A DNA stretch of 32,000 nt. It comes from Pseudomonas aeruginosa (GTDB lineage Bacteria > Pseudomonadota > Gammaproteobacteria > Pseudomonadales > Pseudomonadaceae). The position numbers and the translations under genes were made by a program. Location of the stretch: assembly GCF_001457615.1 (NCBI RefSeq), contig NZ_LN831024.1:3420001-3452000 (forward strand). Reading direction: 5' to 3'. This document shows positions 20,486 to 28,223 of this stretch, piece by piece. Every line of letters starts with the position of its first letter. Positions within the stretch are counted from its first letter, which is position 1. The notes under the pieces were generated by a model. It did no database searches and had not been told where the DNA came from. It was given only the letters and a program-made list of their open reading frames with translations.

Positions 20486-20505
20486 ACCTGCCCGGAAGGG
20501 CAGGT
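20486..20505 (+). promoter_or_regulatory. QscR-binding lux-type box of the downstream operon promoter
   Basis: ACCTGCCCGGAAGGGCAGGT has perfect 8-bp inverted arms around GGAA and fits CT-N12-AG. It is identical to the QscR target site I recall for the PA1897 promoter. A possible -10 element, GACAAT/TTTAAT at 20523-20533, would centre the box near -42. Confidence 0.85.
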
Positions 20506-20772
20506 TGTCCCTGCCGGGCTGTGACAATTTAATTCGACCAGGCATTTCATTGTCCGTGCCGATTTTCACGAAGCGCATTCTGAGGCAATTAAAAAGAGCG
20601 CTCCATTCGACCATGGACAAGCTATCCACGCCTGACCGAGATCGCCTTCCGAATATAGCGAAGCGATAACCGCAGCCTGCCGAGAAGTGCTTCAGACAAT
20701 AAACAGGACGCTGGCCTTTCGTATCGATGAAAGTTCCGCATGGCGTCCGCCCCTAAGGAAGAGGAGATAAAT

Positions 20773-21540
20773 ATGATTTATTACTTGATCGGAGTGGCGC
20801 TATTCATCTTCATGCTGGAACAGTTGGTTCCCGGCTGGAAATTGCCCAAGGTGAGCACCTGGGTGGCCCGGGTGATCTTCCTCAACATCGTCCAGGTGTC
20901 GATCGCCCTGCTCGCCGGCATCACCTGGAACAAATGGATGATGGGGCACAGCCTGCTGCACACCTCGGATGCCCTGCCACCACTGCTGGCCGGCTTCGCC
21001 GCCTACTTCGTCAACACCTTCGTCACCTACTGGTGGCATCGCGCGCGCCACGCCAACGACACGCTCTGGCGGCTGTTCCACCAGTTGCACCACGCGCCGC
21101 AACGCATCGAGGTATTCACCTCCTTCTACAAGCATCCGACCGAGATGGTCTTCAACTCGCTGCTGGGCAGCTTCGTCGCCTACGTGGTGATGGGCATCAG
21201 CATCGAGGCCGGCGCCTACTACATCATGTTCGCCGCGCTCGGCGAGATGTTCTACCACTCGAACCTGCGCACCCCGCACGTCCTCGGCTACCTGTTCCAG
21301 CGCCCGGAGATGCACCGCATCCACCACCAGCGCGACCGCCACGAGTGCAACTACAGCGACTTCCCGATCTGGGACATGTTGTTCGGCACCTACGAGAACC
21401 CCCGCCGCATCGACGAGCCGCAGGGCTTCGCCGGCGACAAGGAGCAGCAGTTCGTCGACATGCTGCTGTTCCGCGACGTGCACAGCCTCCCCGGAAAAAC
21501 CCAGCCCGCTCCCGTCCTGGTCAAGCCCGACGTCAGGTGA
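20773..21540 (+). CDS. membrane fatty-acid-hydroxylase/sterol-desaturase-family di-iron oxygenase
   Basis: ATG 20773 is preceded by AAGGAAGAGGAG; an in-frame ATG at 20740 lacks an SD. The three histidine boxes HRARH, HQLHH and HRIHH, plus TM helices, mark the FA_hydroxylase superfamily. Confidence 0.85.
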   Translation: MIYYLIGVALFIFMLEQLVPGWKLPKVSTWVARVIFLNIVQVSIALLAGITWNKWMMGHSLLHTSDALPPLLAGFAAYFVNTFVTYWWHRARHANDTLWRLFHQLHHAPQRIEVFTSFYKHPTEMVFNSLLGSFVAYVVMGISIEAGAYYIMFAALGEMFYHSNLRTPHVLGYLFQRPEMHRIHHQRDRHECNYSDFPIWDMLFGTYENPRRIDEPQGFAGDKEQQFVDMLLFRDVHSLPGKTQPAPVLVKPDVR

Positions 21541-27103: not shown

Positions 27104-27837
27104 CCAGCGATCCGCAGAAAAACGCCTTCGACCTCGACTACTCCAGCCGCGAACGGCAGTTCCCCGAGGGCTTCAAGCGCAAGATAGTCGCCGACCTGCA
27201 AGAGGGAATGCCGCAGTTCGACGTGCTGCAATACTTCGGCAACCAGCCGGATATCTTCGAGACCTACGACCACCTGGTACTGGCGACCGACCCGGAGGGC
27301 GAACGGATCATCGGCATCCTGGGCGCGAAGGACTTCGTCCGCGGCGCGACGCGCTTCCTCTACCTGTGGACGGCGATGGTGGTCGACCGCTACCACCGCA
27401 CCAGCCTGTTCAAGCGGATCAACCAGTTCTTCCTGCGCCAAGTCAGCGAGCGCAACGGCGGGCTGCCGCCACTGATCGTGGCGAAGACCTACAACCCGGT
27501 GGTCTACAACATGTTCCGCGCCCTAAGCGCGCGGATCCCGGGAGCGACGCTGTACCCGGACCTGGAAGCGCCGCGCCAGAGCCCGGACATGGTCGACCTG
27601 GCCCGCGACGTGGTCGGCACGCTGTCCGCCAACCTGCGCCTGGATGCGGAAACCGGCCTGATACCCGGCGGGCAACGCAGCGTCGCCCCGGATTTCTTCC
27701 CGCGCATGGCGATGTCCAGCCACGCCAGGACCAACGACCACTTCGTCGCCCACGTCGGCAGCAGCGACCAGATCCTCTGCATGGTCCGCCTCGCGCCCGG
27801 TGCCGAACCCTACGTGCAGCAGAGGATCATCCGGTGA
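27100..27837 (+). CDS. hypothetical protein (245 aa); GNAT-like fold possible but unverified
   Basis: ATG 27100 overlaps the acylase TGA (ATGA). High GC3. The segment ERIIGILGAKDF...FLYLWTAMVVDRYHRTSLFKRI is only loosely reminiscent of an acyltransferase core. Confidence 0.7.
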   Translation: MTSDPQKNAFDLDYSSRERQFPEGFKRKIVADLQEGMPQFDVLQYFGNQPDIFETYDHLVLATDPEGERIIGILGAKDFVRGATRFLYLWTAMVVDRYHRTSLFKRINQFFLRQVSERNGGLPPLIVAKTYNPVVYNMFRALSARIPGATLYPDLEAPRQSPDMVDLARDVVGTLSANLRLDAETGLIPGGQRSVAPDFFPRMAMSSHARTNDHFVAHVGSSDQILCMVRLAPGAEPYVQQRIIR

Positions 27838-28223
27838 GCGGACTCGCGCAGCGCTCCGACGACCCGTGGCTGGCGGCGCTGCCGGCCGCGGTGCTCTACG
27901 GCGCCTGGGCGGCCTATGCCAACCAGGACGGCGGCCTGGCCGGGATGGGCGTCGCCGCCCTGCTCCAGGGCGCCGCGAGTCTCCTGGCGACGCGCTTCGG
28001 CCTGTACCTTTTGCAATGTCTCGGCCGCCGCCACGGCCTTGCGCAACGCCAGGCGCCCCTGCTGGTGGTGCTCCTGCTGACCGCGCCGATAGCCGCGCTG
28101 CACTGGCTCTCGGGCACGCCGCATCCATTGGCGAGCGTGGCGCCATCGTTCGTCATCGGCTGGCTCTACTTCGCCCTCTGGGCGCGCCGCCGCCCGGGCC
28201 GCCGGCAAGCCAGCGGCGCCTAG
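27834..28223 (+). CDS. small integral membrane protein (129 aa), unknown function
   Basis: GTG 27834 overlaps the upstream TGA (GTGA). Four hydrophobic stretches. It is the tail of ORF-track entry 27366-28223. Confidence 0.6.

Follow-up and report, generated by a model that had tools for sequence, protein, structure and literature searches.

Comparison with related loci shows the seven genes downstream of qscR in Pseudomonas aeruginosa as what appears to be one inherited block, and QscR as the apparent remainder of a circuit that lost its synthase, the block likewise being without its signal-synthase gene. Our preferred reading, held tentatively and at slightly less than even confidence, is that the seven genes constitute a co-inherited, receptor-controlled pathway that builds or tailors an N-acylated amine (an N-acyl-amino-acid-type lipid) and derives from this circuit.

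The window, the whole stretch of 32,000 nucleotides analysed, is the known P. aeruginosa qscR–PA1897…PA1891 locus (Table 1). The g2 product is 100% identical to proteins named P. aeruginosa in a database search, the phzA2-G2 operon adjoins qscR on the side away from g1 as in that species, and the gene lengths and first two gaps agree with those of PA14_39990-40040. The QscR-regulated PA1895-1897 operon (Lee 2006; Ding 2018, PMC6113619) is the same locus. In the literature on PA1895-1897 these three genes are the operon, whereas here all seven emerge as one evolutionary block. PA1891, PA1892 and PA1896 have been called motif-less, whereas we predict a GNAT fold for PA1892, and place PA1896 in a large family with a predicted fold like those of aminoacyl-tRNA synthetases, cyclodipeptide synthases and IsnA, and with PA1894 as its partner. 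Also new are the synteny of luxR and the seven genes in other lineages, with an rsaM-like gene and luxI between box and g1, the fatty-acyl-AMP ligase (FAAL)-ACP/NRPS context of the homologues in Burkholderiales, and the affinity of g5.

Table 1. Features of the qscR locus, with positions in the window.
Feature	Position	Strand	Description
qscR	19298..20011	-	LuxR-type acyl-HSL receptor, 237 aa, divergent from operon
qscR–g1 intergenic region	20012..20772		761 bp
QscR box	20486..20505		lux-box type palindrome, ACCTGCCC-GGAA-GGGCAGGT
g1 (PA1897-type)	20773..21540	+	255 aa; integral-membrane di-iron oxygenase, fatty-acid hydroxylase / sterol desaturase family
g2 (PA1896-type)	21546..22715	+	389 aa; soluble; predicted class-I aminoacyl-tRNA-synthetase-like Rossmann fold
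g3 (PA1895-type)	22734..24008	+	424 aa; integral-membrane di-iron enzyme, desaturase type
g4 (PA1894-type)	24025..24648	+	207 aa; soluble Fe(II)/2-oxoglutarate oxygenase
g5 (PA1893-type)	24674..27103	+	809 aa; exported or membrane-anchored penicillin-acylase-family Ntn amidohydrolase (predicted)
g6 (PA1892-type)	27100..27837	+	245 aa; divergent GNAT-fold N-acyltransferase (predicted)
g7 (PA1891-type)	27834..28223	+	129 aa, GTG start; small hydrophobic protein, probably membrane

A first-pass annotation, made from the sequence alone, had described seven tightly packed forward-strand reading frames at 20773-28223. Their ends and spacing proved accurate, with gaps of 5, 18, 16 and 25 nt from g1 to g5 followed by two 4-nt start-stop overlaps, ATGA at g5/g6 and GTGA at g6/g7. 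All motifs that it quoted were found in the translations of g1, g3, g4 and g5, and its four enzyme-family calls were correct, with Pfam supporting those of g1, g4 and g5.

The palindrome ACCTGCCCGGAAGGGCAGGT has perfect 8-bp arms and a 4-nt spacer, lies upstream of the operon, which is divergent from qscR as described, and occurs in its exact form once in the window. From its end to the g1 ATG is a distance of 267 nt, consistent with the QscR footprint published as '262 bp upstream of PA1897' (PMC6113619), so that the box can be identified as the footprinted site. The first-pass statement that QscR binds this box agrees with the literature, where DNase footprinting, EMSA and ChIP-seq place QscR on it (PMC4211393; PMC6113619). 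Since matches with up to two mismatches are expected by chance (0.86 per window), the significance of the box derives from the exact match, the published footprint and ChIP-seq, and a conserved counterpart. This counterpart, AGCTGCCCTTTTGGGCAGCT, stands at the equivalent place in five related loci, with the core CTGCCC-N4-GGGCAG kept upstream of luxI–g1.

The order of luxR and g1-g7 is kept in five or more other lineages of the genus Pseudomonas. It was seen in P. paraeruginosa as well as in P. sputi, P. kilonensis, P. fuscovaginae, Pseudomonas sp. RHF3.3-3 and the metagenome contig L019, with 35-76% identity of the syntenic genes in the non-aeruginosa lineages. The proposal that the seven genes belong together, for which a co-occurrence check had been suggested, is borne out by this order, by the conservation of g2 with g4 across the published operon boundary, and by the co-regulation of PA1893-1897 in two independent transcriptome datasets.

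The qscR product matches Pfam Autoind_bind (1.6e-39) and GerE (9.9e-15), and its full-length identity to the luxR product at the equivalent place in L002-L004, L007 and L019 is 48-52%. In these related loci the space before g1 measures 1.3-1.6 kb and holds, between the conserved box and g1, a DUF4902 gene (7e-19) and an Autoind_synth gene (1.8e-23), the luxI stop lying about 45 nt before the g1 start. No remnant of luxI or rsaM was found in the window by tblastn with the RsaM-like and LuxI proteins of L002 and L004 (best E 0.26). The presence of luxI and an rsaM-like gene between box and g1 in the relatives suggests that QscR is a circuit minus its synthase. The ancestor would have been a complete luxR–rsaM–luxI circuit with the AHL synthase as first gene of the same operon, and loss of luxI and rsaM in P. 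aeruginosa and P. paraeruginosa would have left an 'orphan' QscR, its box and seven output genes. A known counterpart is PfsR–RsaM–PfsI of P. fuscovaginae, with which L004 (P. fuscovaginae SE-1; luxR 52% identical to QscR) is equated by gene arrangement and literature description only. Like the window, L004 has a lux-box with the conserved core and homologues of all seven genes. It differs in its DUF4902 (RsaM-family) and luxI genes, both lacking from the window, and its box directly precedes luxI, whereas that of the window stands 267 nt from g1.

The first-pass annotation counted g2, g6 and g7 as orphans, which does not hold for g2, with a family of at least 338 cluster representatives in a profile search (106 below 1e-30), or for g6, with homologues in Burkholderiales and Streptomyces. 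The g2 product has no match in Pfam, NCBIfam or PDB sequences, and its family alignment has an invariant Cys-Pro-Asp-Tyr at residues 175-178. In a Foldseek search of the PDB its AlphaFold model (pLDDT 82.7) matched best the isonitrile synthase PIsnA (9dhm, E 3.8e-4, TM 0.39/0.48), followed by cyclodipeptide synthases and TyrRS; the predicted fold thus resembles class-I tRNA synthetases, cyclodipeptide synthases and IsnA. The g4 product carries HLD at 124, PHEV at 178 and RVS at 189, matches Pfam 2OG-FeII_Oxy_3 (1.2e-12) and has 6n1f_A, '2OG-Fe(II) oxygenase family', as nearest solved structure by sequence (1.9e-38). In 26 of 28 distant loci the g2 homologue has a g4 homologue no more than 3 kb away, and in most metagenomic loci the g4 homologue follows directly (38-47% identity for g4, 22-33% for g2). 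By these comparisons g2 and g4 are the most conserved gene pair of the set, and they span the published PA1895|PA1894 boundary. IsnA and IsnB (PvcA/PvcB) are likewise encoded by paired genes, for an isonitrile synthase and an Fe/2OG oxygenase, and the near-constant succession of g2 and a 2OG oxygenase gene mirrors this pairing, as does the best structural match of g2. The likeness has limits: the TM scores to IsnA are low, cyclodipeptide synthases and TyrRS come close behind in score, no named Pfam family was matched by any of 37 members of the g2 family scanned, or by the 15 scanned at E<=10, and g4 falls in 2OG-FeII_Oxy_3 whereas IsnB and PvcB are of the TauD type. The pair also occurs in sugar/nonulosonic-acid (glycan) clusters with neither a quorum-sensing link nor lipid genes, so it may have a function unrelated to acyl amides, which speaks against our preferred reading.

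Both membrane di-iron enzymes have hydrophobic segments by hydropathy. The g1 product carries HRARH at 89, HQLHH at 103 and HRIHH at 181 and matches Pfam FA_hydroxylase above cut-off (3.8e-29); in NCBIfam it comes nearest to OlsE, an ornithine-lipid hydroxylase, with a weak match (1.2e-17) of 64 bits where the cut-off is 475. The g3 product, with HYTTH at 112, HVNEHH at 150 and HDFHH at 334 (HX3H, HX3HH, HX2HH), has no Pfam match at E<=0.01, and a homologue in L092 that is 51% identical has a recorded FA_desaturase match. Its best NCBIfam family, below cut-off, is GntB (3.4e-15), the L-arginine gamma-hydroxylase of guanitoxin biosynthesis, which has been described as membrane-spanning, with L-arginine as its substrate (bioRxiv 10.1101/2023.03.21.533663). 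The g3 gene sits between g2 and g4 in the closer clade only.

The g6 product matches no Pfam or NCBIfam model and so no curated acyltransferase HMM. Its AlphaFold model (pLDDT 90.5) has a GNAT acyltransferase fold: Foldseek gave 328 PDB matches at E<=0.001, and every one of the 50 listed is a GNAT-type acyltransferase, one of them a GNAT-fold toxin. Homologues were found in Paraburkholderia, Massilia, Caballeronia and Streptomyces, with g1-type, g5-type, g3, g2, g4, FAAL-ACP and NRPS genes as neighbours. The combination of g6 and g1 would be similar in logic to the ornithine-lipid pathway, in which an acyltransferase (the N-acyltransferase OlsB) makes an N-acyl amino-acid lipid that a membrane FA_hydroxylase-family enzyme (the hydroxylase OlsE) then hydroxylates. 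Unlike that pathway, the window has no OlsA-type gene, and the HMMs that g6 fails to match include Acetyltransf_5, which the linked LuxI proteins touch. The g7 product has one segment above the hydropathy cut-off (residues 73-95), more hydrophobic stretches by eye and no family match in Pfam or NCBIfam. A word-based search returned relatives from P. aeruginosa only, and tblastn showed that each full Pseudomonas cluster has, behind g6, a positional homologue with 35-60% identity; g7 is a small, fast-evolving hydrophobic protein that probably lies in the membrane.

The g5 product shares with the Ntn acylases (PvdQ/QuiP/HacB, D-succinylase, cephalosporin and penicillin acylases) a full-length Penicil_amidase domain (1.9e-202), alpha and beta parts and a Ser nucleophile. 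This is predicted to be Ser254, in GSNNW at 253, the residue that aligns with the first position of beta chains in solved structures; an N-terminal hydrophobic segment covers residues 9-36. The nearest solved structures by sequence are D-succinylase (4.5e-68), glutaryl-7-ACA acylase (3.9e-41) and penicillin G acylase (1.2e-39), against 3.7e-20 for PvdQ, and the NCBIfam PvdQ model gives 79.8 bits at a cut-off of 950. By sequence, then, g5 is much nearer to D-succinylase and the cephalosporin/penicillin acylases than to PvdQ, and it is not a PvdQ equivalog.

In Burkholderiales, homologues of six of the seven lie beside FAAL-ACP and an NRPS with a single C-A-T-TE module; N-acyl amino acids are the expected product of this set. 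These clusters (L008, L011, L012, L090 and L092) come from a Massilia forsythiae plasmid (CP051686), Paraburkholderia bannensis and the metagenomic L012, L090 and L092, and share g1 and g6 with the window at 28-53% identity, together with g5 in L008 and L012, with g2, g3 and g4 in L090 and L092, and with all four in L011. A g1-type gene adjoins the g6 homologue in all five and in L091, where g6, g1 and g5 form a stand-alone triad, while in L005 and L006 g2-g3-g4 occur alone, next to genes for an exporter of the LysE type and a class IV aminotransferase. This context and the GNAT fold of g6 strengthen the N-acyl amide theme of the first-pass annotation. The clusters differ from the window in carrying enzymes expected to make an N-acyl amino acid, in having no luxR or luxI, and often in an extra aminotransferase, PhzF-like protein and MFS or RND exporter; no characterised pathway was found among them. 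The NRPS A-domain specificity codes, read by hand, differ between related clusters, so the shared enzymes cannot all depend on one amino acid, which also counts against the preferred reading.

What is established is the gene layout, the assignment to families and folds, the synteny and the co-regulation, whereas the substrates, the order of steps and the link to the quorum-sensing delay are our inference. A long-chain acyl-HSL bound by QscR would switch on the box promoter, giving a transcript of at least g1-g5, and probably to g7, with an internal start before g4 also reported. The GNAT-fold g6 could form an amide from acyl-ACP or acyl-CoA and an amine, g1 and g3 could hydroxylate or desaturate the lipid-anchored intermediate or its acyl-carrier precursor, and the ancient pair g2 and g4 could make or oxidise the amino-acid-derived part. 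The exported g5 would cleave an amide outside the cytoplasm and g7 may be a membrane helper. Quorum sensing would be delayed because the acyl-ACP pool of LasI/RhlI is drained or altered, by the product itself, or both; the options listed by previous authors include to 'synthesize an antagonist' and to 'reduce AHL substrate pools' (PMC6113619). Further observations weigh against this pathway. The window holds no scaffold synthetase (no luxI, FAAL or NRPS), so the N-acyl substrate must be assumed from g6. The first three genes delay quorum sensing, as first noted, and PA1895-97 complements the deletion whereas PA1897 alone does not (PMC6113619), so g4-g7 are dispensable for the delay.

The same complementation is consistent with two unrelated units, a QscR-driven PA1897-1895 and an independent, functionally different PA1894-1891 with a promoter of its own, as are a transcription start mapped separately for PA1894 in PA14 and the placing of QscR by ChIP-seq at the PA1897 promoter only (PMC6113619). 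We consider this very unlikely, since g2 of the 'first' unit and g4 of the 'second' are paired in distant loci, the seven genes stay together in other Pseudomonas lineages, the 16-nt g3-g4 gap holds no terminator, and PA1893-1897 act as one group in transcriptomes; the published 'different reading frame' argument is irrelevant to operon membership. By RNA-seq PA1893-1897 are 2.3-3.9-fold quorum-sensing induced and unchanged in a qslA mutant, one unusual pattern (PMC5767178), and at 28 °C the genes from PA14_39990 to PA14_40040 are all raised 4.0-7.4-fold (PMC3460626 supplement). As first noted, no hairpin plus T-tract separates the genes: a terminator scan of the window gave 5 sites against 4.6 expected and none between genes, terminator signals in L004 being likewise not above chance. 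Neither the published list of quorum-sensing-activated genes (PMC5767178) nor the single supplementary expression table that was searched contains orthologues of g6 and g7. Of the claimed seven-gene operon, the co-inherited block stands, whereas a single transcript is not proven, given the PA1894 start and the absence of g6 and g7 from that table.

The earlier suggestion that the operon modifies or destroys an acyl-HSL, with the oxygenases hydroxylating or desaturating the finished chain and the Ntn acylase removing it so that the LasR signal is lowered or converted, is in our view unlikely. The operon of related species begins with luxI, so the enzymes are co-made with an AHL; QscR is itself an AHL receptor (PMC4211393), g5 belongs to the family that includes PvdQ, PA1893 was reported up-regulated with C10-HSL as sole carbon source (PMC5474475), and subtle AHL modification was allowed for (PMC6113619). 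A luxI at the head of a quorum-sensing output operon is, however, an ordinary autoinduction design, and the output need not act on the signal. Cells that expressed PA1895-97 and showed the delay left the HPLC profiles of 14C-labelled 3OC12-HSL and C4-HSL unaltered over 2 h, and this delay does not need g5 (PMC6113619); g5 is much closer to D-succinylase than to PvdQ, and the same enzymes occur with FAAL-NRPS or, as g2 and g4, in glycan clusters without luxI/luxR or quorum-sensing link. Direct AHL destruction is thus the less likely route and not the one favoured. Plain remodelling of membrane lipids or fatty acids, in which g1 and g3 act on bulk chains, more palmitoleate for example represses quorum-sensing genes and the other genes are incidental, would suit the FA_hydroxylase domain of g1, the desaturase-type histidine boxes of g3 and the higher expression at 28 °C than at 37 °C, as membrane-fluidity genes might show. 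PA1895-97 over-expression alters fatty-acid profiles, including palmitoleic acid, with fatty-acid biosynthesis the most enriched pathway in metabolomics; AHL and pyocyanin levels fall under palmitoleic acid and acetate, and the effect is undone by triclosan (PMC11445212). The metabolomics were differential and untargeted, however, and the exogenous doses high (PMC11445212). We regard such remodelling as rather improbable, as the block is patchily distributed and travels with a quorum-sensing receptor, a GNAT, an Ntn amidase and g2 with g4, its homologues are found in NRPS/FAAL clusters or near genes for amino-acid exporters and aminotransferases, unlike housekeeping lipid genes, and g2 is needed for complementation (PMC6113619), yet has no lipid-enzyme features.

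The PA14 annotation starts g4 at an upstream in-frame start. Two such starts overlap g3, at 23956 (matching that of PA14) and 23932, while an AGGAA Shine-Dalgarno precedes 24025 and the L004 alignment begins at residue 1 of the 207-aa product. The GC content of the qscR–g1 intergenic region is 56-58%, against 63-72% in the operon.

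The restraint that QscR exerts on P. aeruginosa quorum sensing is a question dating from 2001, and the comparisons made here change which experiments make sense. The locus is qscR (PA1898), the receptor gene, together with PA1897 to PA1891 (here g1 to g7), because the protein matches, the phz2 neighbour and the PA14 gene lengths and gaps agree. The g2 and g6 products match proteins named P. aeruginosa at 99-100% identity, phzA2 to phzG2 (PA14_39970 and neighbouring tags) adjoin the receptor gene on its far side, and gene lengths of 768, 1170, 1275 and 2430 bp, as well as the spacing at the first two junctions, are identical in PA14_39990 to PA14_40040 (Wurtzel et al. 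supplement, PMC3460626), an annotation in which g4 begins at an upstream in-frame start. The receptor gene is divergent, the inverted repeat lies ~262 bp ahead of g1, and the seven genes, all on one strand, have the sizes given in the literature. Gaps of 5, 18, 16 and 25 nt separate g1 to g5, and 4-nt start/stop overlaps join g5 to g6 and g6 to g7; the ORF ends, gaps and overlaps are as the first-pass annotation had described them.

The feature itself is already known and hence is no discovery. PA1897 is activated by QscR, which leaves its footprint on this inverted repeat (PMC4211393), the PA1897 promoter was the sole QscR target in ChIP-seq (PMC6113619), and deletion of PA1897 or of PA1895-97 mimics a qscR mutant, a defect complemented by PA1895-97 and not by PA1897 alone (PMC6113619). 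The background given in the first-pass annotation, that QscR binds the box and activates the linked operon and that at least the first three genes delay quorum-sensing activation, is accurate. Fatty-acid changes were linked to PA1895-97 by metabolomics in 2024 (PMC11445212), and a 2026 review still terms the mechanism of the operon unresolved (PMC13043044).

Features of the qscR locus in the window, with identity to the window in clusters outside P. paraeruginosa
Feature	Position	Strand	Identity	Remark
phzA2-phzG2 operon	12543-18855	-		directly beside qscR; PHZA_PHZB x2, DAHP_synth_2, PhzC-PhzF, PNPOx
qscR, LuxR-type receptor gene, 237 aa	19298-20011	divergent from box	48-52%	Pfam Autoind_bind + GerE
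QscR box	20486-20505			ACCTGCCCGGAAGGGCAGGT
g1	20773-21540	+	72-76%
g2	21546-22715	+	52-53%
g3	22734-24008	+	66-68%
g4	24025-24648	+	56-58%
g5	24674-27103	+	57-58%
g6	27100-27837	+	58-59%
g7	27834-28223	+	35-42%
glutathione S-transferase (GST) gene	28312-28935	+		88 nt after g7, same strand
435-aa ORF	28949-30256	-		convergent to operon; without Pfam match

A genome scan seeded with the g2 alignment returned seven loci, whose gene content was then established by tblastn. Co-occurrence with a qscR-type gene, which the first-pass annotation had proposed to check, was seen in five of the Pseudomonas genomes found, P. paraeruginosa, P. sputi, P. kilonensis, P. fuscovaginae SE-1 and Pseudomonas sp. 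RHF3.3-3, where the receptor and all seven genes stand together in the same order; the metagenomic contigs L018-L020 repeat this pattern. The comparative evidence argues that the seven genes are one evolutionary and functional block.

A seven-gene unit is likely, and a single transcript may run from the box promoter through g7, with close spacing, absence of terminators, synteny and co-regulation of g1-g5 on its side and the reported separate start of PA1894 against it (PMC6113619). A terminator scan of the window gave 5 sites against 4.6 expected from shuffled sequence and none between the genes, the hairpin after g7 was no better than shuffled sequence (z = 0.13), and a sigma-70 scan, uninformative in this GC-rich DNA, gave no matches despite the known promoter in the region. 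PA1893-1897 have been reported as one block with a shared unusual RNA-seq profile (PMC5767178), and expression of all five PA14 orthologues of g1-g5 (PA14_39990-40040) at 28 °C exceeded that at 37 °C 4.0-7.4-fold (PMC3460626 supplement file 3). This temperature dependence goes undiscussed in the QscR literature searched. Membership of g6 and g7 is likely from their overlapping start/stop codons and synteny.

The operon was limited to three genes in PMC6113619 because PA1894 'is not in frame' and has a start site of its own in PA14. Read-through from the box promoter could coexist with an internal start before g4. Possible in-frame ATG starts of g4 lie at 23932, 23956 and 24025, of which 23956 matches the PA14 annotation and would give a 53-nt overlap with g3. 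The start at 24025 is preferred on the strength of homologue alignments and an AGGAA ribosome-binding site, and with it the reported PA1894 transcription start would fall inside the end of g3. Prior work used PA1895-1897 only, yet PA1896 is coupled in evolution to PA1894, and PA1893-1891 accompany the set as a whole.

The relatives also bear on the receptor itself. In four full-cluster Pseudomonas loci and one metagenomic contig (L002-L004, L007 and L019), the spacer between receptor and g1 measures 1.3-1.6 kb. Two genes occupy it, one of the RsaM family (DUF4902, 7e-19) and one for a LuxI-type synthase (Autoind_synth, 1.8e-23), at 7740-9174 in L002 and 7991-9172 in L004; the corresponding stretch of the window is 20012-20772. 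The latter sits between a conserved palindrome, AGCTGCCCTTTTGGGCAGCT, and g1, directly behind the box, and is the first gene of the operon, with its stop codon ~45 nt before the g1 ATG. The QscR-like receptor in other Pseudomonas species is not an orphan. In the window and in P. paraeruginosa the box is kept (in the window with perfect 8-bp arms and a 4-nt spacer, as a single occurrence) and both luxI and rsaM are gone without trace. In the window, tblastn found no remnant of either gene, blastn matched the box region only, and no synthase gene lies downstream of the box as a luxI-led circuit would have it. The 'orphan' QscR is therefore the remainder of a once complete circuit, in which the synthase gene stood at the head of this operon.

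Judged by gene arrangement, the receptor–rsaM–luxI loci are of the same type as the PfsR–RsaM–PfsI system of P. fuscovaginae, and QscR owes its orphan status to a PfsR-type circuit having lost luxI and rsaM. A LuxR-solo survey of 2015 placed QscR beside PfsR in its tree, yet called QscR orthologues P. aeruginosa-restricted from their flanking genes. The genes downstream of luxI go unmentioned in the RsaM and P. fuscovaginae literature searched, and the lost-luxI origin of the QscR circuit was not found in the searchable literature, i.e. it was not previously described there.

The strongest single result is that g2, inside the published operon, and g4, outside it, are by gene neighbourhood an ancient gene pair. 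A metagenome scan seeded with a 15-sequence g2 alignment gave 77 loci, 28 of which were distant (g2 homologue <45% identical, at least 2.5 kb on both sides). A g4 homologue lay within 3 kb of g2, usually directly after it, in 26 of these 28, and the distant g4 homologues were 38-47% identical even where g2 was just 22-33% identical. Between the two, g3 was found in 10/28, the closer clade only. Two Pseudomonas genomes (L005, L006) carry g2-g3-g4 alone, preceded by a two-component system and followed by a LysE-type exporter and a class IV aminotransferase gene. The two distant loci that were annotated, L071 (9998-12635) and L050 (9470-12329), have g2, g4 and a class IV aminotransferase gene amid sugar-nucleotide and nonulosonic-acid genes (NeuB, UDP-GlcNAc 2-epimerase, DegT aminotransferase, nucleotidyltransferase and NDP-sugar dehydratase, in L050 also an AMP-binding enzyme), a context that points to a role in making an unusual surface-glycan substituent. 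From these contexts, exporter with aminotransferase on the one hand and glycan loci on the other, the pair seems to produce or alter a small building block that resembles an amino acid.

The first-pass annotation had left three of the proteins unassigned, and two of them are no longer orphans. The g2 family has at least 338 cluster representatives, 106 of them below 1e-30 in a profile search, with invariant Cys175-Pro-Asp-Tyr178, Glu234, Trp325 and Asp365. Searches of Pfam, NCBIfam and PDB sequences with the single protein, an 11-sequence profile or a 37-sequence profile, and at E≤10, gave no match. The best Foldseek match of its AlphaFold model (pLDDT 82.7) was the isonitrile synthase PIsnA (E 3.8e-4, TM 0.39/0.48, 12% identity), followed by cyclodipeptide synthases (CDPS) and tyrosyl-tRNA synthetase (TyrRS) catalytic domains; for CDPS and class-I aaRS folds the Foldseek probability was about 1.0 and TM only 0.30-0.57. 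HIGH or KMSKS motifs were not found in g2 by eye, and the invariant CPDY directly follows a strand at residues 168-174. The resemblance is taken as a fold-level lead only. Assignment of g2 as an IsnA/PvcA isonitrile synthase is not supported at TM 0.39/0.48, no relevant Pfam family being matched in 37 diverse members (E≤0.01) or in 15 (E≤10).

For g6, the AlphaFold model (pLDDT 90.5) had 328 Foldseek matches in PDB at E≤0.001, and all 50 matches listed were GNAT-type acyltransferases, including one GNAT-fold toxin. Sequence models in Pfam and NCBIfam gave no match. The fold check that the first-pass annotation had proposed gave for g6 a predicted GNAT fold and for g2 a weak IsnA/CDPS/TyrRS likeness. 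The third, g7, is a small, hydrophobic, fast-evolving protein that always follows g6 in full Pseudomonas clusters and probably lies in the membrane; a word-based homology search returned P. aeruginosa sequences only.

The enzyme motifs quoted in the first pass are all present, and Pfam backs the hydroxylase (g1), 2OG oxygenase (g4) and acylase (g5) assignments. By PF04116 (FA_hydroxylase; 102.2 bits, cut-off 31) and its HRARH, HQLHH and HRIHH motifs g1 belongs to the fatty acid hydroxylase / sterol desaturase family; as the ornithine lipid hydroxylase OlsE it was rejected, at 64.2 bits versus the NCBIfam equivalog cut-off of 475. By 2OG-FeII_Oxy_3 (49 bits, cut-off 27), with HLD at 124, H at 179 and RVS at 189, g4 is an Fe(II)/2OG oxygenase, and it matches PDB 6n1f at 1.9e-38. 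Three desaturase-type histidine boxes and hydrophobic segments are present in g3, which had no Pfam match at E≤0.01 and of which a 51% identical homologue has a recorded PF00487 (FA_desaturase) match. The best family match of g3, sub-threshold at 56 bits versus a cut-off of 380, is GntB, a transmembrane enzyme acting on L-arginine (Moore-lab preprint, bioRxiv 10.1101/2023.03.21.533663). The g1–g2 'fusion' proteins of 601-647 aa in public databases (P0001-P0014) were dismissed as frameshift or assembly artefacts, since the five examined each shift to the open alternative frame at a different point; in this GC-rich DNA the long open alternative frame (20757-22715) over g1 and g2 (20773-22715) readily gives rise to such false fusions.

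The g5 product, listed as the fourth, uncharacterised Ntn hydrolase of PAO1 (PMC5474475), is a full-length Penicil_amidase (675 bits) of the penicillin-acylase Ntn family, and its predicted nucleophile, Ser254, aligns with residue 1 of solved acylase beta chains. Among solved structures its sequence comes closest to D-succinylase (4.5e-68), with glutaryl-7-ACA acylase (3.9e-41) and penicillin G acylase (1.2e-39) next, whereas PvdQ is reached at just 3.7e-20. A PvdQ-type AHL acylase is accordingly not supported (79.8 bits against an equivalog cut-off of 950). Owing to its N-terminal hydrophobic segment, g5 probably acts outside the cytoplasm, and a GNAT in the cytoplasm combined with an amidase that is exported suggests that the acyl group is added within the cell and removed beyond it. 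In the case of the pyoverdine precursor, PvdQ carries out such an external deacylation after acylation inside.

Parts of the set recur beyond Pseudomonas. A JGI metagenome contig (L091) has g1-g6-g5 alone (66, 48 and 40% identity respectively). In Paraburkholderia bannensis (L008) and metagenomic contig L012 the order is g1-type, g6, g5-type, a fatty-acyl-AMP ligase (FAAL)-ACP fusion and a one-module C-A-T-TE NRPS. A Massilia forsythiae plasmid (L011) carries six of the seven, g1 to g6, around this FAAL-ACP and NRPS pair, and also encodes an aminotransferase and an MFS exporter, and metagenomic contigs L090 and L092 hold the same cluster type with g1, g6, g3, g2 and g4. In textbook NRPS logic an N-acyl amino acid is made by a FAAL-ACP with a C-A-T-TE module after it, and the seven-gene set is thus the accessory half of a type of cluster, 'lipo-amino-acid' in character, that recurs. 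The L011 FAAL and NRPS found nothing by tblastn in the Pseudomonas loci, and the accessory enzymes alone are shared. A-domain codes, read by hand, were DIFNNALTYK in L008, L011 and L012, DVWHFSLIE in L090, which is putatively Ser-like, and roughly DAWWLIGTF in L092. Since the codes differ between clusters, it is unlikely that the shared enzymes require any single amino-acid side chain.

The best explanation, which we favour tentatively and at a little short of an even chance, is a pathway under QscR control for the assembly and tailoring of an N-acylated amine, each step of which we infer. The amide would be formed by g6; g1 and g3 would oxidise a lipid-anchored intermediate or its acyl-carrier precursor; g2 and g4 would supply or oxidise the amino-acid-derived part; g5 would cleave an amide after export, and g7 would assist in the membrane. 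The quorum-sensing delay could then come from competition for, or alteration of, the LasI-RhlI acyl-ACP pool, from the product, or from both. Acyl-pool competition and product action are two of the options left open by Ding et al. (PMC6113619), and are compatible with the 2024 fatty-acid shifts (PMC11445212).

Direct tailoring or quenching of AHLs, which the ancestral luxI linkage would suit, is unlikely in view of unchanged 14C-AHL profiles (PMC6113619), the affinities of g5 (D-succinylase and others over PvdQ) and the presence of the same genes in non-quorum-sensing contexts. Of the receptor-linked signal-tailoring module proposed in the first pass, acyl-amide chemistry stands as likely, on the GNAT fold and the NRPS-linked relatives, and AHL destruction as unlikely. 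Plain lipid remodelling fits the metabolomics (PMC11445212) but mismatches the usual company of the genes and is judged equally improbable. That the genes are two unrelated operons is very unlikely given the g2+g4 coupling and the block synteny.

One may speculate, with considerable doubt, that the product of the operon is a LasR antagonist or a second, so far undetected signal of the N-acyl amine kind. The ancestral luxI and the seven genes would have given a tailored signal, with g2 and g4 contributing a new two-enzyme chemistry also used in surface-glycan decoration, and P. aeruginosa would have kept the tailoring half, running it on substrates shared with LasI/RhlI and so setting the quorum threshold. 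If true, the g2 family with its IsnA/CDPS-like fold would, together with the 2OG oxygenase, represent new chemistry. The function of the operon can be tested more directly now that the g2+g4 pairing, the GNAT fold of g6, the relatives linked to NRPS genes and the loss of luxI have been recognised. Relatives linked to luxI (P. fuscovaginae, P. kilonensis, P. sputi) or to FAAL-NRPS (Massilia, Paraburkholderia) encode the substrate next door, which should make them better places to look for the product.

Several observations concern the flanks. GC is 56-58% at 18200-21200 of the window, a stretch that takes in phzA2, qscR, the spacer between qscR and g1 and the first part of g1; elsewhere in the operon and its flanks it is 63-72%. 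The lower value could reflect foreign origin or AT-rich regulatory DNA. An Rfam scan of the whole window gave no matches. PhzF-like genes, present in the phz operon beside qscR, occur also in the NRPS-linked L090 and L092, which may or may not be meaningful. The 435-aa ORF is 100% conserved in one metagenomic P. aeruginosa contig and partial or broken in P. paraeruginosa (L001, L016) and L014, and this patchy matching marks a variable region. A GST gene also follows the Paraburkholderia cluster, possibly by coincidence. In L002-L004, L007 and L019 the GST homologue (67-69% identical) lies at about 4950-5910 (-), beyond the luxR gene and on the opposite side of the island, and the whole luxR…g7 block has therefore been inverted or re-inserted relative to the GST gene.
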